A stretch of 64,000 nucleotides of DNA from Planctomycetota bacterium (GCA_021776735.1 JAJFFH010000049.1:5523-69522), one strand, 5' to 3'; counted from the first letter of the stretch, positions 985 to 46,914 are shown. Notes: generated by a model not told the origin, from the letters alone. Numbers and translations: made by a program.

Positions 985-1473
985 ATGTGGCTCGACGGCA
1001 TCCTTGCCCAGGTTCCCGGTCTGAAGGATCGGCTGACCGCAGGCGCCAACGTATTCGCCGCAGTCGGCGCTGCCGCGAGTTCCGGAGCCGGTGATCTCAC
1101 CGACCTGGCCACCAGATTTCAGCGATCGAACTTCGTGGGCTTCTCCGGCTCGACCGGTTCAGCGGGTACAAGGCCGAGGCCGGAACGGACGGCGATTCTC
1201 TTGGCTCGCCGGGTGAATCTGCGCTGGGCCCGGCGCGGACCCGCGCACCTGGTCGATACCGCGCGTTTCGACCTCGTCGTGGTTGCGACCGCACTGGGCC
1301 CGGACCACGCCGAAGCCCTCTCCCGCATCCACGAAGCCCTGCGCCTCGGCGGCGTCCTGCTGCTGCGCGACCGTGCGGTGAAACTCCAAGCCCTGCGCGC
1401 AGCCGGCCTGCGCGAAGTTCACCCGAGAGCCGGATTCCTCGTCGCCCGCCGCCGCGCCGCCCGCAGCGCGTAG
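985..1473 (+). CDS. Class I SAM-methyltransferase-like fragment (motif I not recognisable; possibly degenerate)
   Basis: Only the 3' part of ORF 559..1473 is free of the antisense sigma gene. FDLVVVATALGPDHAEALSRIHEALRLGGVLLL resembles MTase motifs II/III. Contains one copy of the dispersed motif (1184..1199). Confidence 0.3.
   Translation: MWLDGILAQVPGLKDRLTAGANVFAAVGAAASSGAGDLTDLATRFQRSNFVGFSGSTGSAGTRPRPERTAILLARRVNLRWARRGPAHLVDTARFDLVVVATALGPDHAEALSRIHEALRLGGVLLLRDRAVKLQALRAAGLREVHPRAGFLVARRRAARSA
1184..1199 (-). repeat. Dispersed motif copy (AACGGACGGCGATTCT orientation)
   Basis: Core ATCGCCGTCCGTT. Inside coding frame, read as E-R-T-A-I-L. Confidence 0.6.
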
Positions 1474-1497
1474 GCCCGACCTCTGCCCCCGCGCCCC

Positions 1498-2418
1498 CTA
1501 TTTCTTACCCTTCTTGTTGGCGTTCTTGGCCGGCTTCATCACCTTGGCTTCTTTGCGCAGCTTCTCGATCAGCTTGGTGAAGGCCTCGGTCGTGATGCGG
1601 CCGGTGAAGTTGTTGAAGCGGACGACGCCCTTCGCGTCGCGGACGACGGTCCACGGCGTGCCGCCGGTGCCGTTCGTGGCCATCGTCGTGCTGAGTCGGG
1701 CGCCGTCGATGTGACCGTCGAAGCCGACCGGCACCGTCACGCCGTGACGCTTGGCCGCGGGCGGGCCGCGTTCGGGCGTGTTGGTTTGCGTGCCCTCCCA
1801 GACGGTCTGGAGATGCATGAACACGACGTCCTTGGCCTTGGCGAACTTCTGTTCCATCTCACGGTGGCGCGGGAACCCCACGCTGTGGCACCCCGGTCAC
1901 CAACTCTGGAACGTGTGCAGGACCAGGACCTTGCCCTTGGTGTTCTCCGGCGTCGGCGGCTCTTCGCCGTCCGCCACGTTGGCCCACTTGTACGCGTACC
2001 ACGGCAGCATCGCGTGGCCCGTGGGGCCGCCCGCGCGCGTGCCGCGCCGCTGTTGCGCGAGCGCGCCGCGATACGCCCGGCGCGCAACGAGCGTCGCCTT
2101 CACCGTGGCCTTCTTGCCTTTGCGCGTGTAGACCACGTCCACCTTGTCGCCGGCCCCGGCGGACCGCAGCGCCGCATCGACATCGGGCGCGCGCCTGATC
2201 GTCTTGCCGTTGATCTCGAGCAAGACATCGCCGTCCGTCAGCTTTGCCTTTTGGGCGGGCGAATCCTTGAGCACGTGCCCGATCACGACACCCTTTTTCG
2301 TCTCCGCCGAGACGATGCCGAGCAACGCGTCGTTTTGTGAGCGGTGATGGCCCTGGGCGAAGGCGACTTGGGCGAGAAGCAAAGAGGCCGTAAGCACACG
2401 GACGGCGATGTTTCGCAT
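1498..2418 (-). CDS. Exported PDZ + TlpA/redoxin-like thioredoxin-fold protein with in-frame UGA (1897..1899) read as selenocysteine (W-U-P-G-C)
   Basis: ORFs 1897..3375 (C-terminal part) and 1498..1881 are in the same frame and separated only by TGA. N-terminus MRNIAVRVLTASLLLAQVAFA is a signal peptide. PDZ-like stretch LLGIVSAETKKGVVIGHVLKDSPAQKAKLTDGDVLLEINGKTI. Thioredoxin fold KGKVLVLHTFQSW-U-PGCH...KDVVFMHLQ...HGVTVPVGFDG...TPWTVVRDAKGVVRFNN...EAFTKLIEKL. Hairpin 1867..1883 lies 13 nt 3' of the UGA. Confidence 0.75.
2393..2413 (-). repeat. Dispersed motif copy overlapping the start codon of the 1498..2418 gene (encodes M-R-N-I-A-V-R-V)
   Basis: AGCACACGGACGGCGATGTTT. Confidence 0.7.
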
Positions 2419-2468
2419 GCGATGAAGCCTAAACCCGCGTTGTCGGGCGTGCCACGCCCGTTTTGGGG

Positions 2469-3086
2469 CTACTTCGAGGCCGGGCGGCGGCGGCGTTTTT
2501 TTTGGGTCGGGGCCTCGTCGCCCCACTGGGTCCAGCCTTCGCGCGGGTGGCGGGCGAACATCTCCAGGTAGGGGCCGGGGCTGCAGGACTCCACGATGTC
2601 GTAGAACTCGTCGGGCTTGCGGCTGTGCTCGCGCTTGCGGGTGGCGAGCAGGTTCACCTGCCGGCGGCCGGGGGCCAGCGTGCGCATCGAGCCGCGCACG
2701 CCGAACAGGATCATCTCCGTGACGTTGCGGAAGTAAAAGCCGACTCCGCGCCCGTCCGGACCGCCGTCTTTGCGGACCTTGAACCAGACCAGGTTCGACT
2801 TGTACTTGAATCCCCAGGCGTCGAGCACCTCGAGCCCCTCGCGGATCAGCGCGTTGGGGCACCACAGGTAGAGGTGGCTTTTTTGGGCGGCGACCTCGGG
2901 CACGGGCAGCGCCAGGATTTCCTTGTGGGTCATCGTGCCGTAGCGCCGCAGCCGCTTGTGTTCGGGCGCCACTTTGCCGGTCCGGTTTTCGAACTGCCAC
3001 GGCGGATCCGCAAGAATCGTCTGAAACCCGTGCTCGCCGAGGGCGAGCAGGGTCCGGGCGGGGGCGTTTTTCCGGCGCGAGATCAT
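2469..3086 (-). CDS. MT-A70 family DNA N6-adenine methyltransferase (DPPW motif)
   Basis: 205 aa. ILADPPWQFENRTGK...YGTMTHKEILALPV...GFKYKSNLVWFKVRKDG matches the MT-A70/DPPW catalytic signature. Confidence 0.85.
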   Translation of the reverse strand: MISRRKNAPARTLLALGEHGFQTILADPPWQFENRTGKVAPEHKRLRRYGTMTHKEILALPVPEVAAQKSHLYLWCPNALIREGLEVLDAWGFKYKSNLVWFKVRKDGGPDGRGVGFYFRNVTEMILFGVRGSMRTLAPGRRQVNLLATRKREHSRKPDEFYDIVESCSPGPYLEMFARHPREGWTQWGDEAPTQKKRRRRPASK

Positions 3087-3142
3087 GGGAAGGCGCTAGT
3101 GGAGCATGCCGCACCCCCAAGGGGGCGCGCCAGAGCAGTGTT

Positions 3143-3847
3143 TCAGAGTAGCGTCGCCGCGCCGGTGGTCGTTTCCCCGTCGACGAGCGCTGCCGTGATG
3201 CCGAAGACCGCGATCGGGCAGCCGCCGCCCGCGCCGCCGCGCAGGCGGGGGAGGAGCCGGCCCATGTGGGTGGTCGCGGCGCCATAGCTGCTGTACTTGC
3301 CCAGCCGGCGAAACACGTCGTCGAGGTCGTCGGAACGTGTGACGATGACCCCGACGCTGACGACGTGCAGGTCAAACAGCAGCCGGAAGTTGTTTAGGTC
3401 GCGGTCGTAGAACGGATCCTTGTTGTTCCATTCGATTTCGAGCGCGATGCGGCCCTTGAAACAGTCGATCTTGTGCGTGGGGGACTCGTGGCGTTTGCCG
3501 TCCACGACGATGCTGGTGTCGAATCCGCGTTCCTCCCAGCCCAACGCCTCGAGCGCGCCGTCCAGCGAATGCGCGATCGCGCTCTTGTTCCCGCCGCCCG
3601 CGGCGATGTCTCTTTCCGCGAGCCGAAAGGCCGAAAGCACGCCCTCGATCTCCGCCCATTCCCGCGGAAACGCGCCGGTCAGGATCGCAAGCGCATGGCG
3701 CCACTCGTGCACCTCCCACCCGGGAAGCCGCGCGCGCACGTCTTCGACGTAGGTGCTCACCCCGAAAGAGTGCGCGCACGCGGCCCGAAACTCAATATTT
3801 GGCGCCGCTACCCGGTCTATTCGGTGCCGGTCGAACGTTCTTTCCAT
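3143..3847 (-). CDS. Putative Type II restriction endonuclease, BamHI-like PD-(D/E)XK fold
   Basis: Real start MERTFDRH inside ORF 3143..4558 (the upstream part is Arg-rich antisense junk). KIDCFKGRIALEIEWNNKD resembles the BamHI catalytic D...E-x-E segment. Directly adjacent to the MTase. Confidence 0.55.
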   Translation of the reverse strand: MERTFDRHRIDRVAAPNIEFRAACAHSFGVSTYVEDVRARLPGWEVHEWRHALAILTGAFPREWAEIEGVLSAFRLAERDIAAGGGNKSAIAHSLDGALEALGWEERGFDTSIVVDGKRHESPTHKIDCFKGRIALEIEWNNKDPFYDRDLNNFRLLFDLHVVSVGVIVTRSDDLDDVFRRLGKYSSYGAATTHMGRLLPRLRGGAGGGCPIAVFGITAALVDGETTTGAATLL

Positions 3848-4974: not shown

Positions 4975-5061
4975 GGATCAGACCTCCACAAGCACTACGC
5001 GAACGAGGGAGTCCGCCTCCCGGTTGACGCAGTTTTTGACAGAGCGGGTCTCGCAAAAAAG

Positions 5062-5079
5062 CATCGCCGTCGGTTTGCT
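5062..5079 (+). repeat. Dispersed motif copy (1 mismatch), about 85 nt upstream of the 3817..4974 gene
   Basis: CATCGCCGTCGGTTTGCT preceded by an A6 run. Confidence 0.6.
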
Positions 5080-5113
5080 GTCCTTTGCGGGCCCAAGCCC
5101 GCAAGCCTTAACG

Positions 5114-7312: not shown

Positions 7313-8037
7313 CGTTTCCGGTCTCCTCGCATCGGCGTTGAAGCCGTGTCCAGGAGCGTGCCCACACCCGTCGCGTCAAAACCGCTGCGCTCCAGTGCGG
7401 TGCGGAGTTTCTTGCGCGCGTCGTGGCCGACTTTGTAGACCGCGTTGGGTTTCGTATCGAGGCGCTCGGCCAGGCGTGTCAGCGGAATACCCGCCAGCTC
7501 GCCCAGGACGACGTGGCGCTGACGCTCGGTCAGTTCCGTGTCGATCGCATGACGCAATGCGGCGAACAGTTCGTTGCGTTCGACGCCTTGACCGGCCTTG
7601 TCCGGTTCCACCAGCGCGGCGTCCACCAGGGGTCCATCGAATTGGGCGAGTTGCGCGCTCGTGCGTTCGACGGACCAGCGGCGCTTGCGCAGCTCGGTGA
7701 GCGCGACGCGAATTGCCACGGCGGTGGCCCATGTCGAGAAACGCGCGTCCCCGCGAAACGAATCGAGTGACGCGAGGATGCGCAGGCACGCGTCCTGCGT
7801 GAAATCGTCGAGATCGGCAGCGGACACGTTGCCTCGTGGCCCGAGTACCACGCCGAGTTTTCGGCGGACGAGCCGGTGCAGCTCCGTGACCGCGGCGTTG
7901 TCGCCGGATGCAAGGTCCGCGATCCAATCGGGTTCGTGCCCAAGCGGCGCCACGTCGTGATCGTAGGCGCTGGCCCGGTGTGCCGACAAGAAAACCGAAA
8001 AAAGCAAACGGACGGCGAGGTAAGAGGCGGCACGCAA
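7309..8037 (-). CDS. ECF RNA polymerase sigma factor (start codon uncertain)
   Basis: Region 2 (LDDFTQDACLRILASLDSF) and region 4 (ERQRHVVLGELAGIPLTRLAERLDTKPNAVYKVGHDARKKL). The 5' end contains a dispersed-motif copy (8003..8020). Confidence 0.85.
   Translation of the reverse strand: MRAASYLAVRLLFSVFLSAHRASAYDHDVAPLGHEPDWIADLASGDNAAVTELHRLVRRKLGVVLGPRGNVSAADLDDFTQDACLRILASLDSFRGDARFSTWATAVAIRVALTELRKRRWSVERTSAQLAQFDGPLVDAALVEPDKAGQGVERNELFAALRHAIDTELTERQRHVVLGELAGIPLTRLAERLDTKPNAVYKVGHDARKKLRTALERSGFDATGVGTLLDTASTPMRGDRKR
8003..8020 (-). repeat. Dispersed motif copy at the 5' end of the ECF sigma gene
   Basis: AGCAAACGGACGGCGAGG preceded by CCGAAAAA. Confidence 0.6.
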
Positions 8038-9583: not shown

Positions 9584-9657
9584 TTCAGCAAGCGCTACGT
9601 CAACGTGAACCTCATTCGCGAACGCGAACGGCGGGATCGGGGTTCGGGTTCGGAGTC
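9584..9657 (+). repeat. Direct repeat copy 1 flanking the four-helix-bundle gene
   Basis: TTCAGCAAGCGCTACGTCAACGTGAACCTCATTCGCGAACGCGAACGG...GGTTCGGGTTCGGAGTC. About 85% identical to 10137..10199. Confidence 0.7.
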
Positions 9658-9661
9658 GGGA

Positions 9662-10090: not shown

Positions 10091-10136
10091 TCAAGCGCTG
10101 ACCAGGGGCGCGTTGATCCGCCCCGCGGTCGTAGGC

Positions 10137-10199
10137 TTCAGCAAGCGCGACGTGAACGTGAACGTCGATCGTGAACGAGAACGGTTCGGGTTCGGAGTC
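10137..10199 (+). repeat. Direct repeat copy 2 flanking the four-helix-bundle gene
   Basis: TTCAGCAAGCGCGACGTGAACGTGAACGTCGATCGTGAACGAGAACGGTTCGGGTTCGGAGTC. Confidence 0.7.
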
Positions 10200-10267
10200 C
10201 GCCGCCGTCCTGCGGGCTATGGCGGACCAGGCGGCGTCGGCGTCGGGTACGGGGTTGGGCGTGACAC

Positions 10268-10287
10268 GGACATCGCCGTCCGTTTGC
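10268..10287 (+). repeat. Dispersed motif copy
   Basis: GACATCGCCGTCCGTTTGCT. Confidence 0.75.
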
Positions 10288-10309
10288 TGTTTTGCTGGGC
10301 CTCTCGTGA

Positions 10310-13663: not shown

Positions 13664-14884
13664 CTAGCGATCCACGAAACGGACCATCGGGGTTCCGCGC
13701 AGCCGTTCGTTGCCGCGGACAACCACCTTGGCCCCGGCCGTGAGGCCGCCTGCGATCTCGACCATGTTGCCGACCGCAAGTCCGAGAACGACGGGCGTCG
13801 GCCGTGCGGTCATGGTCTTTTCGTCCACGACCCACACAAGGGGCCGAGGCCCGCCGAGCGAGAGCGCATCCTTGGGCACCAATATCGCCGTCCGTTTGCT
13901 TCCCCGGTCGATGTGTACTCGCGCCAACATGCCCGCCTTGAGCAGCGGCTGGTTGTCTCTCACCGAGTTGCGGAGGCGCAGCTTGACGGGGAACGTGCGC
14001 GCGCGTTCATCGCCCTGCGGCACGATGGCAATGAGCTTGGCCTGGAACGGTCGACTCGGCAGTGCGTCGATCGTGACGGGAACGACGAGGCCCGGTTTCA
14101 GGTCGCCGACGAAGTCTTCGATGACGTGGACGACGATGTCCACCTCGTCGAGAGCGGCCAGAACAGCCACGGATTCGCCGGTGCCGAGCCAGTGGCCGAC
14201 TTCGGTGCGTTCCTCGATGATCCAGCCGGCGAAGGGCGGCTTGATCGTGTGACGGCGTTTGTCGCTTTCGAGGCGGGCGACTTCGGCGGCCTGGGCGTCG
14301 AGACGGGCGCTGGCCTGTTCGATGCGCTCTTTGCGCGTGCCGGCGAGCAGGAGCGCGAGGGACGCCTCTTGTTGTTTCAGGCGCTGGGCGGCGACGCGAG
14401 CGAGGAGGCGCGCATCCTGCACTTCATCTTCGGTGACCGTCTTGTCGGCAAAGAGCCGCTCCGCCGTGTCGCGCTTCCACTCGCGGGTCTTGACTTCGGC
14501 CTGGGCCTGGCCGACCTGCGCTCGGCCGACCGCCAGCTCCTCCTCGCGCGTTCCGTTCTTTGCTTCGGCGAGTTCGTGCTCGCGCAGGCGGGCGACGGCG
14601 CGCGCCGCGGCGAGGCGGCTGTCGATGGTTGCGGTCCGGAGCTTCGCGAGCGTGTCTTCGGGGGTGACGCGGCGCCCCGCGCGTGCCGAAAACTCGATGA
14701 CCTGTCCCTCGACCTCGCTTCCGAGCACGGCGATCCGTGTCGGGCGTACCGTGCCGACGAATGCACGCCGCGCCGCGACCGGTCGACTTTCGGCGACGGC
14801 AACCACGACGGGTACTCCGCGTGCGGGGCTCTGGCCGGGTGCGAGCCGGGCGAGAAGCCCAAGAATCAGCAGGCAGCGAGTGGT
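13664..14884 (-). CDS. RND efflux periplasmic adaptor (membrane fusion protein, HlyD family)
   Basis: Signal/TM MTTRCLLILGLLARLA. Coiled-coil region and beta-barrel motifs. Ends 12 nt before the RND gene. Confidence 0.9.
   Translation of the reverse strand, partial: TTRCLLILGLLARLAPGQSPARGVPVVVAVAESRPVAARRAFVGTVRPTRIAVLGSEVEGQVIEFSARAGRRVTPEDTLAKLRTATIDSRLAAARAVARLREHELAEAKNGTREEELAVGRAQVGQAQAEVKTREWKRDTAERLFADKTVTEDEVQDARLLARVAAQRLKQQEASLALLLAGTRKERIEQASARLDAQAAEVARLESDKRRHTIKPPFAGWIIEERTEVGHWLGTGESVAVLAALDEVDIVVHVIEDFVGDLKPGLVVPVTIDALPSRPFQAKLIAIVPQGDERARTFPVKLRLRNSVRDNQPLLKAGMLARVHIDRGSKRTAILVPKDALSLGGPRPLVWVVDEKTMTARPTPVVLGLAVGNMVEIAGGLTAGAKVVVRGNERLRGTPMVRFVDR
13882..13900 (+). repeat. 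Dispersed motif copy inside the MFP coding sequence (antisense to motif; encodes S-K-R-T-A-I-L)
   Basis: ATATCGCCGTCCGTTTGCT. Confidence 0.7.
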
Positions 14885-14993: not shown

Positions 14994-17900
14994 ATGGACG
15001 ACGCGCCCGAGGTGGAAGCTCTGCTGGCCCATGGCCGCTTTCTTCGTGCTCTTGCGCGCGACATTCTGCGCGACGCGCATCAGGCGGAGGACGTCGTGCA
15101 GGAGGCGTGGTTACGCGCCAGGAATCGAGCGCCGCGCAAGGCCGGAGCGATGCGGGCATGGCTCGCGCGCATCGTGCGCAATCTGGCGCTCGATCGGGTC
15201 CGCGCGGAACAGGCGAGGCGCCAGCGGGAAGTAGCCGTGGGCCGGGCAGCCGTGCGTCAGGGACGGACGGCGATGTCTGTGCCGCCGCCGGATGTGGCCG
15301 CACGGTTCGAGGTGCAAAAACGCACCGCCGACGCCGTTCTGGATCTTCCCGAGCCGTATCGATCGACGATCCTGATGCGGTACTTCGAAGACCTCGCGCC
15401 CCGAGAGATTGCGCGGCGGGTCGGCGTGCCGGGCGCGACCGTGCGCACGCGTGTCCGGCGCGGCCTGGCGATGTTGCGCAAGGCGCTGGACGAACGGTAT
15501 GGCCGGCGCGCGTGGCCCGCACTACTGGTCGTGGGAGGAGGCGTGATGGCGAAACTCAAGGGAGCGGCTGTTGTTGCCGCCGTTCTGGCTGTGATTGCGT
15601 TGACCGTGTGGCGGGTGCGGGCGGACCCGGAGCGGACCCGCGGACGTTCCTCGGAGGGGCGCCGGGCCGCCTCGACATCATCCGGATTGACGTTGGCAGA
15701 CAGCGCCGGCGACACGGTGTCGCATCGGTCGCGTCGCATCCTGAGCGGCGTCGTTCTCGAGACGTCCGGCCGACCCGCGTCCGGGGCCGTCGTCCGCTGG
15801 CGGCTGCGGCAGCCCGACCTCGGTTGGCAGCCCTTTCGGCATTCCGCTTTGCACAGCGGCTCGGCGACGTGTGACGACGCCGGGCGATTTCGGCTCTCGG
15901 TAGATCGTCGTGCCGGATCCCTGTCCGCAGTCAAGGACGGCGATGTCTCTCCGGACTGGGAGGTCGGAACCGGCGATCCCGGCGCTGGCCTGGTGCTGCA
16001 CCTGCGTACACCTGTTTCGGTCGTGATCAGGGTGATTGAAAATCGCGATCGACCCGTCACCGGCGCCCAGGTTCGCGTGGCGCCAACTCTGCTCGGTCCC
16101 TTCGCCGGCGACGTGCACGACGGGGCGACGGATTCGAGCGGTCGCGTGCGGATCGCAGGAGTGCAGCCCGGGTTCGCGTCGGTCGTCGTTCGTGCCGCTG
16201 GGTATGTGACGGCGGTGCGGCGTGCCGTGCGATTGCCCGGGAATGACGTCGTCGTTCGTCTGCGTCGGGGCCGTCCATTCTTTGGCATTGTCTGCGATGC
16301 CGGCGCCGTGCCGGTACAAGACGCTCGTGTGCGTTGGGTCTCGGCGCATGAACACGCCCTGGGCGGTGAGCAGCGCACCGACGCCGGGGGGCGGTTCTTG
16401 GTTCCCGCGCTACCGGCTGGGAGGATCGCGTTTTTCGTGGAGGCCGGTGCGACAGGGCAGGCGTATCACGTCTGTGCGCGGCCGGCGGGCCGGAGCGTGG
16501 GGGAGCGGCAACGATTCGCGCTGGATCCGCCCGTCGGGCTCGAGGGGCGCGTGTGGATGGGCGAGAAGAGCGCGCGGCGGCCGCTGGTGGGAATCCCGGT
16601 ACGGGTTTCCGGCGCCGAGTTTTTTCATGTGACGAACCGCGGCACGTTCGGTGTTCGCGTCATTCGTTTCGGGTCTCTATCGCGGCGAGCCGTCACGGAC
16701 GCCGACGGTCGTTTTGCATTCGCCGGACTTTCGCACCGGGCCACGCAACTCAGCCTTGCGCCGCCGTTCTACGTTGTGAAGCGGCTTGCCGGCGGCGACG
16801 TGCAGGCGGCGCGTGCGGGCCGGGTGCACGGGACCGTTCGCGACGAAGCTGGTCGTCCGGTCGCCGGCGCGGTCGTCTTGCGTCCCGGCGGCGAGGGTTA
16901 TCGCAACATCACCAACGCCAAGGGACAGTATGAATTGTCCCTTGTTCCGGGGGCGAAACGGGCCGTGCGTCTCGACGTGTTCAAAGACGGATTCACGCGC
17001 GTGCAGCGAGGCGTCTCGTCGGCCGGAGCGATCGACTTTCGGTTGGCGCGAGTGTCTTCGATCGACGGCCGCGTTGTATCCGCCGCCGGGCGGCCTATTC
17101 TCGGCGTGAAGGTCGGACCCGTGCGCAACACGGTCTTCACCGATCGCGATGGTCGGTTTCGTTTCTTCCGAAGCCCGGAAACGACCAGCGTCCCGTTCGT
17201 CCACGAATCCTACGAGTATCGGAGCGTGGAGCTTTCGGACGAAGCGACAGTCGTGCTCTCGCCGGCCCCGGTCCGTGTCTTCGTCCGGGGGCGGGTTCTG
17301 GACACGAAGGGAGAGCCGATCGGAGAAGCGGACGTGACCTGGCGATCCGAAGGGAGGCACGAGGCTGCCATAACCGACGGCCGCGGCCGTTTCGAGCTCG
17401 GCCTCGCGGCGGGTGCCTGGACCGTCGTGGTCGAACGCGACGGCTACGCTCCGTGGCGGCGCGAGGATGTCGATGTGCCGCGGGCCGAGCTCCTGGAGAT
17501 CATCGTGCGATCGGGCTCGTCGATTGCCGGTCGCGTCGTGGACGCAGGGGGCGCCGCCGTCGCGGGAGCGACCGTGATCGTTTCTGGTCCCCGCGACGCT
17601 GGCAAGGCACGAAACTGGCGCGCGACGACCGGTGTGGACGGCGGCTTTCACGTGGACGATCTGCCCCATGGACAGTTCGCGGTCATTGCCGCCGGCCCGA
17701 GCTCGGCGGCCGGCCACGACCGGGCTCATGACGTAGCTGCGGACACGGTCGACCTGGAGCTGCGTTTTGCCGCGTCTCGAGCACTGAGCGGCCGCGTGTT
17801 CGATCCGGATGGCCGGCCGTGGCCGGGCGTCGGGATCGTCGTGCGCGTCACCGACGCGGACTTGCGGCGGCACCGACTGCGACGTGATCGTGTCAGCGCG

Positions 17901-18380
17901 GTAACGGACGGTGACGGCCGCTTTCACGTCAAGGGGCTCCACGGTACCCACGCCACGATCGCAGTTGACACGAATCGCGGCTCACGCGCGGAGACCTACA
18001 TGCAGCAGGATCTGCGCGTGGAGCCGGGACAGCGCGACATCGAGATTCGGGTGCGGACCGAACGGACGATCACCGGTCGCGTGCTGGATCCGAAGGGGGC
18101 GCCTGTCGCTGGCGTATGGGTCTCGATCACAGATGTCGCGACCAGCAGCGGCGCGCGGCTGACCACGGACGGCGATGGGCGGTTCCGATTCCATGGCCGG
18201 AGTCGGGCGACCTACGAGTTTTCCGCGTCCGCCCGCCGCATTCCGTTTGGCCCCGGCATGTGGGGCTTCGCGTGGGCAGGCAAAACGACCGCCGGTGCCG
18301 GGACGAATTCGGTGACGGTCGCGTTGCAGGTGGATCAAAACGCGGTTCGGATGGCGGAGCGCGCCCGCCGTGGCCGGTGA
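14994..18380 (+). CDS. ECF sigma factor fused in frame to a TM helix and about 900 aa of CarboxypepD_reg-like repeats
   Basis: N-terminal 180 aa carry sigma region 2 (EDVVQEAWLRA) and region 4 (LDLPEPYRSTILMRYFEDLAPREIARRVGVPGATVRTRVRRGLAMLRKAL). This is followed by TM helix MAKLKGAAVVAAVLAVIALTVW. Then come repeated GRVVDAGGAAVAGATVIVSGP / GRVLDPKGAPVAGVWVSI / TDGDGRFRF units. There is no stop codon between the parts. Confidence 0.8.
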   Translation: MDDAPEVEALLAHGRFLRALARDILRDAHQAEDVVQEAWLRARNRAPRKAGAMRAWLARIVRNLALDRVRAEQARRQREVAVGRAAVRQGRTAMSVPPPDVAARFEVQKRTADAVLDLPEPYRSTILMRYFEDLAPREIARRVGVPGATVRTRVRRGLAMLRKALDERYGRRAWPALLVVGGGVMAKLKGAAVVAAVLAVIALTVWRVRADPERTRGRSSEGRRAASTSSGLTLADSAGDTVSHRSRRILSGVVLETSGRPASGAVVRWRLRQPDLGWQPFRHSALHSGSATCDDAGRFRLSVDRRAGSLSAVKDGDVSPDWEVGTGDPGAGLVLHLRTPVSVVIRVIENRDRPVTGAQVRVAPTLLGPFAGDVHDGATDSSGRVRIAGVQPGFASVVVRAAGYVTAVRRAVRLPGNDVVVRLRRGRPFFGIVCDAGAVPVQDARVRWVSAHEHALGGEQRTDAGGRFLVPALPAGRIAFFVEAGATGQAYHVCARPAGRSVGERQRFALDPPVGLEGRVWMGEKSARRPLVGIPVRVSGAEFFHVTNRGTFGVRVIRFGSLSRRAVTDADGRFAFAGLSHRATQLSLAPPFYVVKRLAGGDVQAARAGRVHGTVRDEAGRPVAGAVVLRPGGEGYRNITNAKGQYELSLVPGAKRAVRLDVFKDGFTRVQRGVSSAGAIDFRLARVSSIDGRVVSAAGRPILGVKVGPVRNTVFTDRDGRFRFFRSPETTSVPFVHESYEYRSVELSDEATVVLSPAPVRVFVRGRVLDTKGEPIGEADVTWRSEGRHEAAITDGRGRFELGLAAGAWTVVVERDGYAPWRREDVDVPRAELLEIIVRSGSSIAGRVVDAGGAAVAGATVIVSGPRDAGKARNWRATTGVDGGFHVDDLPHGQFAVIAAGPSSAAGHDRAHDVAADTVDLELRFAASRALSGRVFDPDGRPWPGVGIVVRVTDADLRRHRLRRDRVSAVTDGDGRFHVKGLHGTHATIAVDTNRGSRAETYMQQDLRVEPGQRDIEIRVRTERTITGRVLDPKGAPVAGVWVSITDVATSSGARLTTDGDGRFRFHGRSRATYEFSASARRIPFGPGMWGFAWAGKTTAGAGTNSVTVALQVDQNAVRMAERARRGR
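15261..15278 (-). repeat. Dispersed motif copy inside the sigma-fusion gene linker (encodes G-R-T-A-M-S)
   Basis: GGACGGACGGCGATGTCT. Confidence 0.65.
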
Positions 18381-20434: not shown

Positions 20435-20848
20435 ATGGCGGAAGACAACGGATTCGATGGGTCTTCGCGACCCGTGTACCTGTTCGCGTTCCTGGTCGGC
20501 GCGGGCATCGCGATCTATCTGTACTTCGTGAAGTTCGACGAGCTCTCGGAAACGCAACTCGTCAACTACTCCGGAGTCTGGTTCCTGATGTTCGTCTTCG
20601 GCGGCACCGGCCTCGCCCTCGAAGCCGCCGCGACGCTCGTCGCCAAGGGCGAGGTCGAGAATCTGTCGAAGGGCATCGTTCGGCACGGCTGCGGTACCGC
20701 ACCGATCACCTGGCTCTTCTTTTTTCCGCTTCTGTTCTACAACGCCGCGAAGAACGCCAAGAAAACACTGCCGGTCGCGATCTACATCACCGCCGTCTGG
20801 GCGGCGCTGTTCTATTTCTTCATGGCCGTCGTGTTCCCGGCCCTGTAA
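20435..20848 (+). CDS. Small integral membrane protein (3-4 TM), hypothetical
   Basis: 137 aa. Hydrophobic segments. Locally lower GC. Confidence 0.55.
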   Translation: MAEDNGFDGSSRPVYLFAFLVGAGIAIYLYFVKFDELSETQLVNYSGVWFLMFVFGGTGLALEAAATLVAKGEVENLSKGIVRHGCGTAPITWLFFFPLLFYNAAKNAKKTLPVAIYITAVWAALFYFFMAVVFPAL

Positions 20849-20850
20849 GA

Positions 20851-20909
20851 ATCGCCGTCCGTTTGCTGTTTGACCGACATCGGACCGTAAGCAAACGGAC
20901 GGCGATGTT
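20851..20909. repeat. Inverted pair of the dispersed motif (ATCGCCGTCCGTTTGCT ... AGCAAACGGACGGCGATGTT)
   Basis: Two copies in opposite orientation 22 nt apart. They lie between the stop of the membrane-protein gene and the start of the FG-GAP gene. Confidence 0.8.
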
Positions 20910-20948
20910 TGCCCGACCGTGGCCGCTGTCGCGTATATGCTGGCAGAC

Positions 20949-22217: not shown

Positions 22218-22263
22218 ACCTCCGGACCGGGATCACCTACAATCCCGGTCCGGAGGTTTTTCT
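22218..22263 (+). terminator. Rho-independent terminator (14-bp perfect stem + T5)
   Basis: ACCTCCGGACCGGGA-tcacctacaa-TCCCGGTCCGGAGGTTTTT directly after the FG-GAP gene. Confidence 0.8.
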
Positions 22264-24959: not shown

Positions 24960-25229
24960 CTATCCGCCCGCCACCGCGGGAAAGACATCGAGAACATCGC
25001 CGTCCGCCAGCTTTGTCTCAAGGGCTTGCTCCAGGTAGGGAGCATCGCGGCCGTTGACAAACACATGGACGTGCGGCCACAACTCGCCGCGGTCGTTCAG
25101 CAACTCCGCGCGCATGCCCGGAAAGCGCTCCGCGATCGTGTCGATGACTTCGGCGACCGTGCCCGGTTCGAACTCGGTGCGCTTTTGGCCCGCGATCTCG
25201 CGCAGCGTTGCGTAGAAGTTGACGATCAC
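24960..25229 (-). CDS. MoaD/ThiS-family ubiquitin-like sulfur-carrier protein
   Basis: 89 aa. MIVNFYATLREIAG...GDVLDVFPAVAGG, a C-terminal GG beta-grasp signature. Confidence 0.8.
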   Translation of the reverse strand: MIVNFYATLREIAGQKRTEFEPGTVAEVIDTIAERFPGMRAELLNDRGELWPHVHVFVNGRDAPYLEQALETKLADGDVLDVFPAVAGG

Positions 25230-29161: not shown

Positions 29162-30381
29162 TTGTGGTCACCGTAACCGGCGCCGGAAGGACGGATGACC
29201 CAATCCGCCTCGTAGAACTCGAGCAGCGTCGGCGGAATTCTCACACCCGGTGACGCGAGCCTGAAGTAGAACCCGACCTTGCCCGGTTTGGGGTCCTTGC
29301 CGCGTCCGTCGTTACCCGTGCGGCCCGTACGCTTGCCGACCGCGATCACCTTGAAGGCGACAAAACGCTGCCGCTTCAGGTCGTATGAAACCGTGCCTCG
29401 CAGCGTCGCGTTCATCGTGCGCGGCCAGTCGCGGTCCGGCGTCCAATCCGTCTTTCCTAGGAGCCACGGGCCTTTGGCGACAGCCCTCGTTGTCCCCGAA
29501 ACGGTCAGCCTCAAGAGATCGCCGTCCGTACGCTTTTTTTCGAGGGTTATCTCCGCGTGCACGATCTCGCTCGCGGCGAACGGAAGTGTCTGGCCGCGTA
29601 CGTTGTCGATCAGGTGAAACCGCGCCAGGCGCAGCGCCAGGCTGCGCGGCATTTTCTTTGTCTTGTCGGTCTTGCCGGGGAGCAACGAATTCGCCTCGTC
29701 TTTCGTGAACCAGACGAAGTCGCGGTTCCAGCGGCGGTCGCCCCCCTTGATGTCGCGCACGAACCGCTCGAGTATCAGGCCGCCTTTCGGGTAGCTCTGC
29801 TCCCAGCGATGTTTGGGCGTGAACTTGGACCCGGGCGGGAGTCTCCTGTCGGCGGGTTCCAACGCCTTCCATTTTTTCTTCGCGAGATCGAGCATCGCCA
29901 CGATCTTTTCCACATTGCCGGTGTTCGCCGAGGCGAGCAGCTTGCCACTCGGTGCGATGACGTAGTAGCCCTGCTTGGTGCCGCCCTTGCCCTTGTAGTG
30001 GCCGAGGACGGCGAAGCTCTGGAAGAAGCGGCACTCCGGCCCGGTGCCGTTCTGCAGCCGCCAGGTTTCGTCGGCGGCGAGGGTGAAGTGTTTTTTCAAG
30101 AGCCCGCGCACAAGCGGGTCGCGAAAGACGGACCGCCGGCCCGTCACGCCGTTGTTTCACGTGCAGCCGAGTGGGTGGCCGTTCATGACCCACAAAAACA
30201 ACGGTTGCTGCCGTGCGTGCGCCGTCTTCAGGCCCTCCGCGAAGCTGGGGAACCACGGCAGGCGGTCGGCAGCGAGCTCCTTTTTGGTCGGAAGGATGTG
30301 ATCGCCGCGCGGGTACACGCCCGGCGGGTCTTGGGCGGCAACGACGGTGGTCAGGAAGAGGACCGCGATGACAGAGCGCAT
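29158..30381 (-). CDS. Exported Thioredoxin_7/DsbD-gamma-like protein with in-frame UGA (30157..30159) read as selenocysteine (G-C-T-U); paralog of 3817..4974
   Basis: ORFs 30157..30381 (signal peptide MRSVIAVLFLTTVVAAQ) and 29158..30147 share a frame and are separated only by TGA. Read-through gives ...QQPLFLWVMNGHPLGCT-U-NNGVTGRRSVFRDPLVRGLLKKHFTLA, which aligns with Thioredoxin_7. An 8-bp hairpin (30127..30145) lies 11 nt 3' of the UGA. Confidence 0.7.
29517..29542 (+). repeat. Dispersed motif variant inside the 29158..30381 gene
   Basis: GATCGCCGTCCGTACGCTTTTTTTCG. Confidence 0.45.
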
Positions 30382-30428
30382 CGTTGCAGGCTATCAAAAG
30401 CCGTCCGGTGCGTGCGCTACGCTTCGCG

Positions 30429-32373: not shown

Positions 32374-32397
32374 ATCGTTCGGACCGACCCGGAAAAA

Positions 32398-32418
32398 AGC
32401 ACACGGACGGCGATGTCT
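32398..32418 (-). repeat. Dispersed motif copy between convergent genes
   Basis: CCGGAAAAAAGCACACGGACGGCGATGTCT. Confidence 0.75.
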
Positions 32419-32774
32419 CTATGTGCGCCGTGACCGGGGTGCCGGAATCGACAGAGTCCCAATCTAGCGAACGCCTTGCCGATCAGCGGCGGCGCGAAGG
32501 GCCGTGCGCTGCACCGGCTTGTTAGGCGGTCGCGCCCGGGAACCGGTTTTCAGCCACAGAGGACACCGAGATCACAGAGAGACTCGCTGAATGCCATCCA
32601 CCAATCGCGGACTGCCGAGGGCCTCCTCGTAGTCCGACTCCAAGGGACCGGGACCCATGTGGCGACGCACCTCGATCGCCCCGACGATGATCCGCTCGGT
32701 GAGCGGATCTCTCCTTCTCTGAGACCTCTGTGATCTCTGTGGCAAGAAGTTCTCATCGTCCGCCCAACACTCCG

Positions 32775-33614: not shown

Positions 33615-33669
33615 CGCGGAAGGATAGCCGAGAAGAGCGCCCCCAAGCTGTTTTGCGGTTCCGGAAGCG

Positions 33670-34183
33670 TCAATCGCCGTCCGTCCGCTCTTCGCGGGTC
33701 ACTTCCTGGCGTTGGTCGTTGCTTCGCAGACGACGCGGAACCCGACGGTCGATTTCGGCTCGTCGCCTCTCCGAGTCCTTGACCCTGTAGCGGCGCGTTT
33801 CATAGCCGGCAATCGTTGCAGTGGCGTCGGTCGCTTCGAGCTCGGTCCTGAAGTGACGCGCCCTGAGCGCGCGGACGTCCTTGTCCATGGTGTCCAGATC
33901 CGACACCATGCCCCATTCGCTCGTCTTGGCCCCGTAGTCGAGCCGCAGCGCCTTGCGCAGGCCGTAGCGAACGATCGCGCTCCCGTCGCTGAGTCCGCCG
34001 GCGTCGTCTTGCCGATACGCCGCGCGCCCGAAGTGGATCGTGATTTTTTGCGCCGCCAAGCCGCGAAACGCCTTGGCCTGCGCCCCCTCGGCCGACTGCT
34101 CGAAAACAATGCGGCCGGTGAAGTCCTCCTCGCCGGCCCACAGCGGCGCGGCGAGCAGCAACAAAACGAAGCGATGATGCATG
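33670..34183 (-). CDS. Secreted hypothetical protein
   Basis: Signal peptide MHHRFVLLLLAAPLWA. 171 aa. Flanked by two direct copies of the dispersed motif (33673 and 34243). Confidence 0.6.
33673..33689 (+). repeat. Dispersed motif copy at the 3' end of the secreted-protein gene
   Basis: ATCGCCGTCCGTCCGCT. Confidence 0.6.
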
Positions 34184-34242
34184 CGCGGTCTTGTAGGGGA
34201 CGGCAGGGACGCGAGAGTGGGTTTAGGGGGTCGGGGGGCAAG

Positions 34243-34269
34243 GACATCGCCGTCCGTTTTCTTTTTTGG
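34243..34269 (+). repeat. Dispersed motif copy about 60 nt upstream of the secreted-protein gene
   Basis: GACATCGCCGTCCGTTTTCTTTTTTGG. Confidence 0.75.
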
Positions 34270-34335
34270 TGTCTTGTCTGCCCGTGCGCCTGGGGACTGT
34301 CGGATCCCTGCGTATGCTGCACTTGAACCGCTGCA

Positions 34336-36734: not shown

Positions 36735-36761
36735 GCTGAGACCGAAGATCCACCCGAAAGA

Positions 36762-36782
36762 AGCGGACGGACGGCGATGTCT
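36762..36782 (-). repeat. Dispersed motif copy upstream of the small ORF / NTase pair
   Basis: CCCGAAAGAAGCGGACGGACGGCGATGTCT. Confidence 0.7.
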
Positions 36783-36812
36783 CCTCGGGACCGGAGGGTA
36801 GACTGGGCGGGC

Positions 36813-37462: not shown

Positions 37463-37496
37463 TGGCGCAGCACTCCGGTGCTGCCACGGCTCCCAG

Positions 37497-37516
37497 ACAT
37501 CGCCGTCCGTTTGCTT
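37497..37516 (+). repeat. Dispersed motif copy following a terminator-like hairpin (GCAGCAC-TCCG-GTGCTGC)
   Basis: GACATCGCCGTCCGTTTGCTTTCGTTCGG. Confidence 0.75.
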
Positions 37517-37548
37517 TCGTTCGGAGTTCGTTCGATGCGATCTCTCGC

Positions 37549-42970: not shown

Positions 42971-44275
42971 GTGACTGCGCGACGTGCACTCCTCACGCGA
43001 CTGTTGCCGATCGCGGATCTGGCGGTGCTCGGGGCTGCGTTCGCTTTGGCGTACCGTCTCCGGTTCGGATCGTTCCCGGGCCCCGGAGACTTGCGGCACA
43101 CGGTGTCGCACCTGCTCTTGGGCCTGGCGCTTCTCGGCGCGTGGCTTCCGGGGTTGTTCCTGTTCGACCTGTACGACCCGGCCCGCTTTCGCGCGCGCGG
43201 CCGCCTCGCCGGCCAGGTCGTGCAGGCCGCGATACTCGTGGCGCTCGTGGCAGCGGCGGTGCTCTTTGGCACCAAGGCCACGCTGGCGAGCCGCGCGGTC
43301 TTTGGAATGACGCTGGTGATGGCGGCGGTGGGTGTGTGGCTGGTGCGCCTCGCCGCCTTCCGCTGGCTGCACGCAGGAACGCGCGAGCAGGCCATCTTGA
43401 TCGTCGGGGAGGGCGCCGATGCCGAGCGAATGGCCCAAGAGATCCCGGGCGCACGCCGGACGACGAGTGCCGCGCTTCGCGAGGTCCTGGACACCGAAGT
43501 CATCGATCGCGTCATCGTTGCGACCGCGTGGGACGACATCGCACCGTGTGTCGAAGTGTGCCTGGAGGTCGGCGCCGACGTCTCCATCGCGGCGCCGCTT
43601 CCCGGCCCGATCCTCGCCCGCGCCGTACCCGACCGCGTTTTCGGAACACCGGTCCTGCACCTGCACGGCTCGCCGCAATACCGCGCGGCGATGGTCGGCA
43701 AGCGCGCGTTCGACATCGTCGCCGCCTGCGTGCTGCTGCCGTTCGCGTTCCCCGTGTTCGCTGTCGCCGCCCTCGCCGTCCGTCTCTCGTCGCCCGGCCC
43801 GGTCCTGTTCGTGCAGGAGCGCGTCGGCCTCGCGGGCCGGCGGTTCAAGCTCTACAAGCTGCGCACGATGCGAACCGGCGCGGCGGCGGCTCCCGGCAAG
43901 CTCGGAAAGCTCGGAAAGCTCGGCGAGAAGGATCCGGACGACCCGCGCGTCACCCGCGTCGGCCGCTTCCTCCGCCGTTCGTCGATCGACGAGTTGCCGC
44001 AGCTCCTCAACGTGTTGCGCGGCGACATGAGCCTCGTCGGCCCCCGCCCCCCCCTGCCCGAAGAGGTCGCGCGTTACGACCGATGGCAGCGCCGCCGCCT
44101 CTCGATGCGCCCGGGCCTCACCGGACTGTGGCAGGTCTCCGGCCGCTCCGAACTCGGCTTTGACGAGTGCCTGCGGCTCGATCTCAAGTACATCGACAAC
44201 TGGAGCCCGTGGCTCGACGTCAAGATTCTCGTGCGCACGGTGCCTGCCGTTTTGAGTGGACGCGGCGCGCGATGA
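42971..44275 (+). CDS. Undecaprenyl-phosphate sugar phosphotransferase (WbaP/PglC-type initiating transferase)
   Basis: [20 protein letters not shown]...FKLYKLRTM...[28 protein letters not shown] is the bacterial sugar-transferase signature. Confidence 0.9.
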
Positions 44276-45093: not shown

Positions 45094-45850
45094 AGCGCTA
45101 GGCCAGGACGAGGCGATCCGGTTCGAGGGGGTGTGCAAGCGCTATCGGCTTGGCCGCGGCGGCGCGTGGGCGGGCGACCTGCGCGACGAGGCGGGGGGAC
45201 TTCTAGGCCGCCTCTTGCGGCGCAATCCGGCACCCCCGACCGTCGATGCGCTGGCCGGCGTGTCGTTTTCCGTACGGTGCGGCGAGAACGTCGCGCTGGT
45301 CGGCGCGAACGGTGCGGGCAAGTCCACGGCCCTGAAGCTCGTCGCACGCATCACCGTGCCGACGAGCGGTACCGTCTGGGTGCGCGGTCGCGTCGCGTCG
45401 CTGATTCAGATCGGCGCCGGGTTTCACCGGGAGCTGACCGGCCGCGAGAACGTGTTCCTGTACGGCGCAATCCTGGGGCTCACGCGCGGCGCGATCCGCG
45501 ACCGCATCGACGCCATCGTGGAGTTCGCCGGGCTCGAACGGTTCATGGACACGCCGGTCAAGCGCTACTCGCGCGGGATGTTTTTGCGGCTCGGCTTCAG
45601 TGTCGCCGTGCACGTCGATGCGGACGTGCTCTTGATCGACGAAGTGCTGGCCGCGGGCGACCGCGAATTCCGCGAGCGCTGCTTCGACCGGATGCGCACG
45701 CTCGTGCAGAGCGACAAGACACTCCTGTTTGTCTCCCACCAGCGCGAACTCGTCGAAAAGACCTGCGACCGCGCGCTGCTCCTTGCAGACGGCCGGGTTA
45801 CCGCGGACGGTTCCGTCGCCGACATCTGGCGCACCTACGCCGCCTCATGA
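45083..45850 (+). CDS. ABC transporter ATP-binding protein (Wzt/KpsT-like)
   Basis: Walker A LVGANGAGKST. Signature and Walker B LLIDEVLAAGD. Confidence 0.9.
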   Translation: MSSEALGQDEAIRFEGVCKRYRLGRGGAWAGDLRDEAGGLLGRLLRRNPAPPTVDALAGVSFSVRCGENVALVGANGAGKSTALKLVARITVPTSGTVWVRGRVASLIQIGAGFHRELTGRENVFLYGAILGLTRGAIRDRIDAIVEFAGLERFMDTPVKRYSRGMFLRLGFSVAVHVDADVLLIDEVLAAGDREFRERCFDRMRTLVQSDKTLLFVSHQRELVEKTCDRALLLADGRVTADGSVADIWRTYAAS

Positions 45851-46914
45851 GCGCGCGGCGCAGGATTCTCTATGTGATCCCGTCGTTCGAGGCGGGGGGG
45901 GCGGAAGCCCAGGTCGTCGAGCACCTCCGTCGTCTACCGCGCGACCGCTTCTCGCTGGAGCTCGCGCTGTGCCGCCGCACGGGCCGCCACTTGGCGAACG
46001 TGCCGGATGACGTCGCGATCCATGGTCTGGGAGGGGGGCGGGGGCCGTGGCACTTGCCGTTTCGCGTGCGCCGGCTGCGGCGCCTGATGCGCGAGACGCG
46101 TCCCGACATCGTCGTGAGCCACCTTTGGTACGCCGACCTCCTGAGCCTGCTGGCCGGCGGTCTCGCGCGTCGCGTCTGCGTGCTGCACGCCGATCACGCT
46201 GCCGAGCTGTCGTCCCTGCGGCGCCGCCAGCGTCTCGGACTGCGCTTGACCGAGCGGTTGTACCGGCGCGCGGACGTCTTGGTCGGTCCGCCGTGGATCA
46301 TGTCGCGCTACGGCGGTGGCGCCACTCTCGGACTGCAAAACGGCATCGACCCCCGCAATCTGACCGCGCGTGCCCGTGCCGCTCCGCCGCCGGAGTGGCC
46401 CGGGCCGGGTCTGCGGCTGATGGCGATGGGACGACTGCATCCCGTCAAGGGCTTTGACGTGTTACTGGACGCGCTGGTGCTCGCACGCCAGCGCGGGTTG
46501 ACCGCGTCGCTGCTTGTCGCGGGCGAGGGACAGGAACGGACGGCGATGTCTGTGCGAGCGAAACGGCTCGGCGGCGTAGCCTTGCCGGGCTACTTGACCA
46601 ACCCCTATCCCGCTCTGGCGCATGCCGACGTATTCGTGCTCTCGTCGCGATCCGAATGCATGGCGACCGTCGTAAGCGAAGCGCTCGCGCTCGGAACCCC
46701 GGTCCTTGCCACACCGTGCGCGGCCCGCCATCTTGACGGCGCCGGTGTGGTCGTGCCGGCCGAAGATTCCGCGGCGCTCGCACAGGCGCTGCTGGACTTG
46801 GCCGCGTCGCCGGAGCAGCGCGCGGCGTTGGCCGAACGCGGGCGCGCCCGGGTGGAGCAGTTCGGTTGGGACCACGTCCTGCCGCAACTCGTGGAACTCT
46901 ACGAGTCGCTGTAG
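45847..46914 (+). CDS. GT4-family glycosyltransferase
   Basis: N-terminal ILYVIPSFEAGGAE. C-terminal GT4 EX7E region (SSRSECMATVVSEALALGTPVLAT). Confidence 0.85.
   Translation: MSARRRILYVIPSFEAGGAEAQVVEHLRRLPRDRFSLELALCRRTGRHLANVPDDVAIHGLGGGRGPWHLPFRVRRLRRLMRETRPDIVVSHLWYADLLSLLAGGLARRVCVLHADHAAELSSLRRRQRLGLRLTERLYRRADVLVGPPWIMSRYGGGATLGLQNGIDPRNLTARARAAPPPEWPGPGLRLMAMGRLHPVKGFDVLLDALVLARQRGLTASLLVAGEGQERTAMSVRAKRLGGVALPGYLTNPYPALAHADVFVLSSRSECMATVVSEALALGTPVLATPCAARHLDGAGVVVPAEDSAALAQALLDLAASPEQRAALAERGRARVEQFGWDHVLPQLVELYESL
46535..46552 (-). repeat. Dispersed motif copy inside the GT4 coding sequence (encodes E-R-T-A-M-S)
   Basis: AACGGACGGCGATGTCT. Confidence 0.65.

Follow-up and report, generated by a model that had tools for sequence, protein, structure and literature searches.

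A dispersed, lineage-specific DNA word in a Planctomycetota genome segment as a candidate uptake-type tag

What kind of element can recur every few kilobases on both strands of a bacterial genome, in spacers and coding sequences alike? We asked this of a 64,000-nucleotide stretch from a Planctomycetota bacterium (GCA_021776735.1, JAJFFH010000049.1:5523-69522), referred to below as the window, in which one short word is repeated many times. An original prediction had described this word as a motif of 20-30 nt and proposed a DNA-uptake sequence, a Chi-like or nucleoid-protein site, or a repetitive extragenic palindromic (REP) element. Our analysis points to a DNA recognition word that is lineage-specific, non-palindromic and about 30 bp long, and that may behave like the self-DNA uptake tags known as DNA uptake sequences (DUS) and uptake signal sequences (USS). 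We favor this reading tentatively and give it somewhat less than an even chance. The window has a G+C content of 66% and carries Planctomycetota-type genes, including a PF07638 extracytoplasmic function (ECF) sigma factor, sigma70/CarboxypepD_reg fusions and an STT3-like transferase. Named relatives are metagenome-assembled genomes labeled 'Planctomycetota bacterium', with identities of at most 70%.

A repeated 12-bp core with degenerate flanks

The invariant unit of the word is a 12-mer, ATCGCCGTCCGT, which occurs 16 times exactly and 22 times when one mismatch is allowed. The base composition predicts about 0.015 copies of this 12-mer in 64 kb (calculated). A search with a 13-mer at two mismatches returned 31 sites, whereas 100 dinucleotide shuffles averaged 6.8 and never exceeded 15, and a profile trained from sequence alone on 11 copies found 21 matches in the window. 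Aligning the copies gave a consensus of about 30 bases, (C)AGAC-ATCGCCGTCCGT-TTGCTTTTTT-CGG, in which a T-rich tail lies directly 3' of the core and the flanks are degenerate. We found no second phased A/T tract beyond this single tail in the aligned-copy consensus. Similarity between copies ends at about 30 nt on both sides, with no longer common flanks. Copies are spaced about 3 kb apart on average and are balanced between the strands (11:11).

These results support the claims of the original prediction that the word is far above chance and present in both orientations, and they recover the extensions it described, as AGAC on the 5' side and TTGCTTTTTTCGG on the 3' side. All 16 positions that it listed carry the core with zero or one mismatch, but the coordinates were off by 0-5 nt and the list was incomplete, since copies at 2227, 15933, 18165, 24996 and 43772 had been overlooked. 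The 18-mer that it proposed as the unit, CATCGCCGTCCGT(T/C)(T/G)GCT, matches literally at only 3 places.

We placed the copies on a gene map built from frame statistics of G+C at third codon positions, Pfam matches and tblastn comparisons with relatives; the gene boundaries are our own calls. Ten copies lie in spacers of all types (tandem, convergent and divergent) and 11 or 12 lie inside genes, for a genic share of about 52% (Table 1). Gene boundaries are strongly enriched in copies, many of which lie no more than 52 nt from a stop codon, and no rule for their orientation relative to neighboring genes emerged in the window. Earlier statements about placement fared unevenly. Copies do lie between convergent genes (32403 and 37499), and the copy at 2398 does encode M-R-N-I-A-V-R at the genuine start of a signal-peptide gene. 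The count of four open reading frames (ORFs) with internal copies was too low, as there are at least 11 genic copies, and a copy at 29518 that had been placed upstream of a gene lies within the conserved minus-strand gene 29158-30147. The direct repeats at 33673 and 34246 exist, but we found no convincing gene between them.

Two arrangements of copies stand out. The copies at 20846-20912 form an inverted pair with a 17-bp stem, ATCGCCGTCCGTTTGCT, and a gap of about 22 nt. The copies at 36750-36784 and 37494-37528 form a second inverted arrangement around a module of a small ORF and a nucleotidyltransferase gene, with their AGAC heads pointing inward.

Table 1. Copies of the word in the window and their gene context (coordinates count from the first base of the window)
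Copy	Position	Strand	Context and remarks
Extended, CAGAC ATCGCCGTCCGT TTGCTTTCGTTCGG	37494..37528	+	Convergent spacer, 36902-37462(+) / 37549-40440(-); profile 34.1 bits, exact core
Extended	32387..32420	-	Intergenic, 17 nt past SSF transporter stop (32373); profile match
Extended	10266..10300	+	Intergenic, 10 nt past AcrB-like stop (10310, minus strand); orthologous copy in L004
Extended	36750..36784	-	Intergenic, past stop at 36734; profile match
Full-length, genic	29513..29547	+	Inside conserved minus-strand gene 29158-30147; profile match
Extended	34240..34274	+	Intergenic, ~100 nt upstream of YraN/PD-(D/E)XK-like gene 34346-34768; profile match
Left arm of inverted pair	20846..20880	+	2 nt past stop of 137-aa gene (20848); copy in orthologous L004 spacer
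Right arm of inverted pair	20877..20912	-	Upstream of FG-GAP gene (20919); profile match
Extended, 1 core mismatch (CTCGCC...)	7995..8022	-	Divergent spacer, ECF sigma gene (minus) / CMD gene (plus)
1 core mismatch, L004-type head AAAAGCATCGCCGTC	5057..5091	+	52 nt past stop of 5144-5890(-)
Copy	33668..33702	+	~25 nt upstream of start of 238-aa gene (32775-33650, minus strand)
Genic, sense	2386..2413	-	Start of exported PDZ protein, ATG CGA AAC ATC GCC GTC CGT = MRNIAVR
Genic, antisense	2222..2245	+	PDZ gene, K-L-T-D-G-D-V-L
Genic, antisense	13881..13902	+	Membrane-fusion protein (MFP) gene, GGA AGC AAA CGG ACG GCG ATA
Genic, antisense	46534..46553	-	GT1 glycosyltransferase 45847-46914, E-R-T-A-M-S-V; rare codon TCT
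Genic, antisense	15262..15280	-	sigma70/CarboxypepD_reg gene, G-R-T-A-M-S-V; rare codon TCT
Genic, 1 mismatch	15935..15949	-	Same gene as 15262-15280, K-D-G-D-V-S; rare codon TCT
Genic, core only	18165..18178	-	CarboxypepD_reg repeat, T-T-D-G-D-G-R
Genic, antisense, 1 mismatch	24991..25014	+	ThiS-like gene, K-L-A-D-G-D-V-L; L004 orthologue has CATCGCCGTC there
Genic core, antisense	1184..1201	-	Gene 970-1473(+), E-R-T-A-I-L
Genic, sense, 1 mismatch	43769..43785	+	Sugar transferase gene, A-L-A-V-R-L; weak case

A sister dialect and copies inside genes

We compared the window with eight loci from relatives (131.6 kb, G+C 62-74%). AcrB homologues (72-77% identical) led us to six of them, and the other two came from homologues of gene 29158-30147 (62% and 57% identical). 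These relatives encode the same protein families as the window, and their 131.6 kb contain no copy at up to one mismatch. A profile search at E<=10 found 5 copies in a single relative, while the 105.5 kb from six others yielded none. When we scanned GTDB species genomes, JGI metagenome contigs and IMG/VR viral contigs for the exact pattern, only single coding or chance matches came back, those from IMG/VR belonging to one conserved phage gene. These collections include no close relative rich in the word.

A sister lineage carries its own form of the word. The JGI metagenome contig L004 encodes an AcrB that is 83% identical to that of the window and is syntenic with most of window 1-34 kb. It contains 12 core copies, CATCGCCGTC, in 23 kb, in a dialect that reads GAAAG-CATCGCCGTCC-N3-4-GCTTCG with flanks of its own. 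Eight orthologous sites hold copies in both genomes. Four are in spacers or at gene boundaries (the 3' ends of the AcrB, 137-aa and 251-aa genes, and upstream of the 238-aa gene), and four are genic (the PDZ gene start, and sites within the PDZ, MFP and ThiS genes). The PDZ start in L004 reads MRSIAV with the same CATCGCCGTC, the copy at window 5057..5091 has its orthologue at L004 20643, and the site orthologous to 33668..33702 holds an inverted pair in L004. Each genome has one such pair: that of the window comes directly after a stop codon, and that of L004 precedes a gene start. Codons also shift toward the dialect of each genome. The peptide GES(I/V)AVL is encoded as GGA GAA AGC ATC GCC GTC CTT in L004, which spells its dialect, and by unrelated codons, GGC GAA TCC GTG GCT GTT CTG, in the window; at the T/H-DGDV site of the PDZ gene, the window's ACG...GTC TTG fits its own ACGGAC...GTCT form and L004 has CAC...GTC CTC. 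The dispersed copies have changed in concert, as is expected when many sites co-evolve with one reader.

We used synonymous resampling, in which proteins were kept fixed and codons were redrawn from window usage (53 coding sequences, 56 kb, 1000 runs), to estimate how many copies coding sequence should contain. Exact 12-mers numbered 7 in the coding sequences, against 0.23 expected and a maximum of 3, which is an excess of about 30-fold; shuffled proteins gave an expectation of about 0.03. In L004 the corresponding numbers were 5 observed and 1.0 expected (P ~0.001). Rare codons preserve the flanks of genic copies: TCT, which makes up 2.4% of Ser codons, is used in three copies, and GGA, AAA, CGT and TTG are used in others. 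The genic copies are therefore not codon accidents, and the pressure that maintains them acts at the level of DNA, as had been predicted from their tolerance inside genes. The case is weakest for the copy at 18165..18178, which a chance peptide motif could explain.

These results bear on two readings that we regard as refuted within this window and to which we assign the smallest chance of all. The first is a general coincidence of codons or peptides (T-D-G-D, R-T-A). The reverse complement of the core does read as common codons, ACG GAC GGC GAT, but synonymous resampling rejects this explanation, as does the lack of copies in relatives that encode the same protein families. The second is a polar chromosome signal such as Chi or the FtsK-orienting polar sequences (KOPS). 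Chi, KOPS and the related architecture-imparting sequences (AIMS) are octamers of comparable density that are tolerated in genes, and one copy per 3-4 kb resembles the density of Chi in E. coli. These octamers are strongly skewed toward the leading strand, whereas the window word shows no strand or replichore bias, with an 11:11 balance overall and 9:8 within 8-46 kb, despite uniformly positive GC skew there (up to 8 kb the skew is slightly negative, and from that point to the end it is positive). This absence of strand skew rules out Chi and KOPS. Another over-represented word, the highly iterated palindrome HIP1 of cyanobacteria (GCGATCGC), is found in coding and non-coding DNA, is linked to methyltransferase sites and reflects a DNA-level pressure of obscure function. 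The window word shares its over-representation in both kinds of DNA; HIP1 is an 8-bp palindrome, and the window word is asymmetric and 12-30 bp long.

How did the word come to lie inside genes? In the MFP gene, the window and L004 both read GGA AGC AAA CGG/AGG ACG GCG AT, and four more distant homologues have different residues and unrelated codons over an equal length, with no indel at the copy. The full 30-nt copy in gene 29158-30147, which has 155 database homologues, reads CTC GAA AAA AAG CGT ACG GAC GGC GAT CTC (L-E-K-K-R-T-D-G-D-L). It aligns without gaps to 16 homologues and codon for codon to two of them, L061 and L062; L061 reads CTG ACG ATC ACG AAG CGC GAC GGC CAT CGC. Because this codon alignment is gap-free, insertion of a mobile 30-mer is excluded for this copy. 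Genic copies fall on poorly conserved residues, where USS copies have likewise been reported (PMC2817400). The alignments indicate that genic copies arose by base substitution without indels and not by insertion.

This origin weighs against a miniature mobile element of the REP, REPIN or MITE (miniature inverted-repeat transposable element) kind, spread by a REP-associated tyrosine transposase (RAYT) or an insertion sequence (IS) transposase. Several features recall such elements. The word is short, abundant and mostly in spacers, there is one inverted doublet per genome, and gene-content differences between the window and L004 often adjoin copies. REPs, REPINs and bacterial interspersed mosaic elements (BIMEs), which RAYTs mobilize, share with the window word a length of about 30 nt, abundance, placement after stop codons, occasional inverted doublets and species specificity. 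REPs, however, are imperfect palindromes that are strictly extragenic and spread by insertion, while the window word forms no palindrome or stable hairpin and has at least 11 genic copies without indels, one of them full-length. The copies do not form one mobile family with identical longer flanks: they resemble each other over no more than about 30 nt and lack terminal inverted repeats and target-site duplications. A MITE or a solo IS end was rejected for the same reasons and because no common internal sequence exceeds 50 bp. No transposase or RAYT domain, including the Y1 transposase domain, was found among the 58 window ORFs scanned with Pfam. We consider the mobile-element reading very improbable and largely refuted.

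We considered whether the word might act in RNA, with its reverse complement, AAAAAAGCAAACGGACGGCGAUGUCU, serving in mRNA as a protein-binding, processing or stability signal or as an unconventional terminator. The reverse complement is on the sense strand in 9 of the 11 genic copies (9:2) and in all three informative tandem spacers of the window, where it follows soon after stops, and it gives the called ATG of two L004 genes. However, codon usage alone predicts a ratio of roughly 1:3 for the genic orientations, so their excess provides no evidence for a role in RNA, and 3 of the 8 informative copies in L004 have the opposite orientation. Folding 16 copies on both strands gave no common structure and only 3-bp GAC/GTC complementarity; only the inverted pair at 20846-20912 could fold. 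A search of Rfam 15 returned only tRNA-Pro at the gathering score, and within 29-38 kb no copy coincides with a match at E<=5. Terminator-like sites in general are not enriched (18 vs 14.7), and the scan flags no copy. These findings make an RNA-level element improbable. An intrinsic terminator was rejected outright, as the copies have no hairpin and their T-tract usually lies on the strand opposite to the adjacent gene. We also rejected the reverse-complement ATG as a general start codon, since it serves two L004 gene calls, but most of the window ORFs that it opens run to just 5-28 codons. The two L004 genes, an acetyltransferase gene and a BglII-like gene, take their called ATG from the reverse complement of the dialect, GACGGCGATGCTT (13315-13324 and 20643-20652), and both starts sit 13-29 nt past the preceding stop. 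The PDZ gene at 2398 is the one place where a signal-peptide reading (IAVRLLFS) holds; the remaining frames are startless or overlap stronger genes.

A promoter or operator, read by one of the many ECF sigma factors or by the regulator of a large regulon, would fit the position of some copies, 36-100 nt before gene starts in both genomes, and ECF sigma genes are nearby. Equally many copies, however, face the 3' ends of genes, separate convergent genes or are inside genes. We inspected the sequences and found no fixed distance to starts and no common -10 element; the spacing to putative -10 boxes varies (13, 20 and ~40 nt). Sigma-70, sigma-54 and ECF geometries were rejected in this inspection, in which the spacing to TATCCT, TACAAT and TACGAT was inconsistent and the sigma-54 GG was missing, and a sigma-70 scan showed no enrichment. 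Moreover, an invariant core of 12 nt far exceeds usual promoter conservation, and the genes adjacent to copies share no functional theme. As the original prediction had held, the word does not behave like a promoter, and we leave this reading only a slight chance.

Likeness to uptake sequences and the main rival

We compared the window word to known uptake sequences. DUS from the Neisseriaceae (AT-GCCGTCTGAA and its dialects, recognized by the minor pilin ComP) are also short and non-palindromic, lie on both strands in genes and spacers, and have dialects that track phylogeny and inverted pairs, which are common and lie after genes (PMC3630211). By extrapolation, the window word would reach hundreds to thousands of copies per genome, as DUS do. 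Its 21-22 copies in 64 kb reproduce the high-copy pattern of genic and intergenic sites on both strands with inverted pairs, at a density below that of Neisseria. All DUS are 10-12-mers with an invariant inner core, 5'-CTG-3' (+6 to +8), and an A at +10 (PMC3630211). Within the window word, GCCGTCCGTT matches the DUS 10-mer GCCGTCTGAA at 7/10 positions, which is a resemblance only: CTG reads CCG here (+7 is C, not T), and +10 is T instead of A. This change in the inner core places the window word outside the DUS family. It also differs in phylum, in its longer unit (a 12-bp core plus T-rich tail) and in its frequency of about one per 3 kb.

The USS of Pasteurellaceae (core AAGTGCGGT or ACAAGCGGT with AT-rich flanks) have a similar layout, in which a conserved core is followed by an A/T-rich flank. 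USS and the window word both have about half of their copies in ORFs, at poorly conserved residues and of point-substitution origin, and both have sub-types in sister lineages. The 9-bp USS core is unrelated in sequence, so the window word is not a member of the USS family, and it lacks a helically phased second tract. It further differs from USS in the rare codons of its genic copies and in a much stronger enrichment in spacers. The genic share of known uptake sequences is 34-65% (PMC2817400), and copies of this class arise in ORFs by indel-free substitution where residues are poorly conserved (PMC2817400, PMC1626085), a pattern that we see at the MFP, PDZ, ThiS and 29158-30147 sites. Dialects in close kin and absence from distant relatives, also typical of the class, are likewise present here.

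The published signature of uptake sequences is a dispersed asymmetric word with a constant core and looser flanks, balanced between strands, in genes and spacers, that originates by substitution where residues are poorly conserved and shows inverted pairs beside genes and dialects in sister lineages (PMC3630211, PMC2817400, PMC1626085). Because the features of the window jointly match this signature, we rank a DUS/USS-like tag first. Under this proposal, pressure at the DNA level would keep the word dense on both strands, in spacers and by substitution inside genes. A competence receptor on the cell surface would bind the word, so that fragments of 'self' DNA with good matches would be preferentially taken up and recombined, and mutations that improve a match would spread by molecular drive as a result. 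The word would co-evolve with its receptor, giving rise to dialects in sister lineages. An uptake receptor as the reader of the word, and transformation in this organism, are what we infer from this pattern.

Uptake tags have been documented solely in Neisseriaceae and Pasteurellaceae (PMC3630211; bioRxiv 10.1101/2025.10.24.684340), and literature searches by sequence and by topic found no description of the motif. The window word might represent a third, independently evolved family, the first outside Proteobacteria, whose tag is a 12-bp core plus T-tract with sister dialects; we regard this further step as rather doubtful. If true, natural transformation, in a sequence-selective form, would exist in a phylum from which it is not known. 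Were the uptake reading confirmed, the phenomenon would reach a distant phylum and would point to natural transformation there, which could aid the genetics of bacteria that are difficult to manipulate. If the word is not an uptake tag, another process must be able to overwrite coding sequence genome-wide with a word of 12-30 bp. In either case, two dialects at orthologous sites offer a comparative system and a bait sequence for the protein that reads the word.

Several observations weigh against an uptake tag. The window contains no pilin or competence gene and no receptor within its 64 kb, and our literature searches found nothing that links Planctomycetota to natural transformation, competence or uptake sequences. 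The word is longer than DUS and USS cores. Its genic copies depend on rare codons, unlike those of USS, whose reading frames track preferred codons (PMC2817400), and its full form is 7-fold denser in spacers (~1.4/kb) than in coding DNA (~0.2/kb). The distribution of copies is uneven, and the last 17.4 kb (46.6-64 kb) hold none at all (P ~0.001 under uniform placement). The tetranucleotide composition of this motif-free part equals that of the rest of the window, and on this unchanged signature we rejected a foreign origin. Retention of copies in the same spacers of two diverged genomes would fit a site-specific function equally well. Finally, all statistics rest on a small sample, 64 kb of window and 23 kb of L004.

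Some of these points would suit the main rival, an array of binding sites for an abundant, cytoplasmic, sequence-specific DNA-binding protein with a role in organizing the nucleoid, as an insulator or roadblock at gene boundaries, or in chromosome maintenance. Selection would preserve each site, and co-evolution of the sites with the protein would produce the dialects. An invariant core with degenerate flanks that vary by lineage, the retention of copies in the same spacers of both genomes, the enrichment at gene boundaries and the uneven distribution along the window all agree with such an array, and the A/T tract that adjoins the core might induce a bend in the DNA. However, an array of this kind gives no obvious reason for copies in coding sequence that cost rare codons and altered residues, the copies follow no orientation rule relative to genes, and we identified no candidate protein. 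We judge the binding-site array unlikely, and yet it is the strongest alternative to an uptake tag. Among the classes first offered for the word, the DUS/USS-like one fits and the nucleoid-protein array is a live rival, but the REP-type and Chi-like ones do not hold.

Neighboring features

The inverted copies at 36750-36784 and 37494-37528 exactly flank a toxin-antitoxin-like pair, composed of a small ORF (36777-36983) and a DUF2204/DUF6036 nucleotidyltransferase gene (36902-37462). The copy at 10266-10300 adjoins what looks like an inserted cassette (9584-10205). Two direct repeats of about 70 nt and about 85% identity, TTCAGCAAGCGC...GAACGG...GGTTCGGGTTCGGAGTC (9584-9660 and 10137-10205), bracket a minus-strand gene for a 23S-rRNA-intervening-sequence protein, a four-helix bundle (9662-10090). 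The motif-free region 46600-64000 encodes a glycosyltransferase, radical-SAM and Wzy cluster, followed by RRM, desaturase, DEAD-box helicase and Band-7 genes and tRNA-Pro, and contains about 3 kb of spacers.

The spacer that holds the 32387..32420 copy is 400 nt long in the window and 20 nt in L004. It contains inverted repeats, CCACAGAGGACACCGAGATCACAGAGAGA (32554-32582) and TCTCTGAGACCTCTGTGATCTCTGTGG (32716-32742), around a short minus-strand ORF fragment (...LTERIIVGAIEVRRHMGPGPLESDYEEAL), which we take to resemble GxxExxY/PD-(D/E)XK-type small proteins. Upstream, a shadow frame (29461-30396, about 300 codons of ORF 29461-32373) runs over the minus-strand gene 29158-30147, with GC by codon position of 0.87/0.46/0.60, and the conserved SSF transporter begins near 30397.

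Three further features have counterparts in L004. A 16-bp perfect stem-loop (22218-22257) lies just before the ATG (22265) of an aldehyde:ferredoxin oxidoreductase gene, with a GGAGG Shine-Dalgarno sequence in its 3' arm and CCTACAAT in its loop. In L004 the same CCTACAAT...CCGGAGG is surrounded by a different hairpin, and the stem-loop may serve to control translation. Upstream of the 238-aa gene, both genomes have GCTATCCT-N6-ATG (33611-33628, minus strand, in the window; ~100-120 in L004), which looks like a -10 box positioned for a leaderless mRNA. The genes at 2469-3750, an MT-A70 methyltransferase gene adjoining a homologue of a BglII-like endonuclease gene, keep their arrangement in L004 and are likely a restriction-modification pair. 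Near the end of the window, a G-run tract, GGGGGGGAAGGGGGCCCGGGGGCGGGGGGG (52556-52585), has a partly complementary C-rich tract 3.4 kb away (56022-56055).

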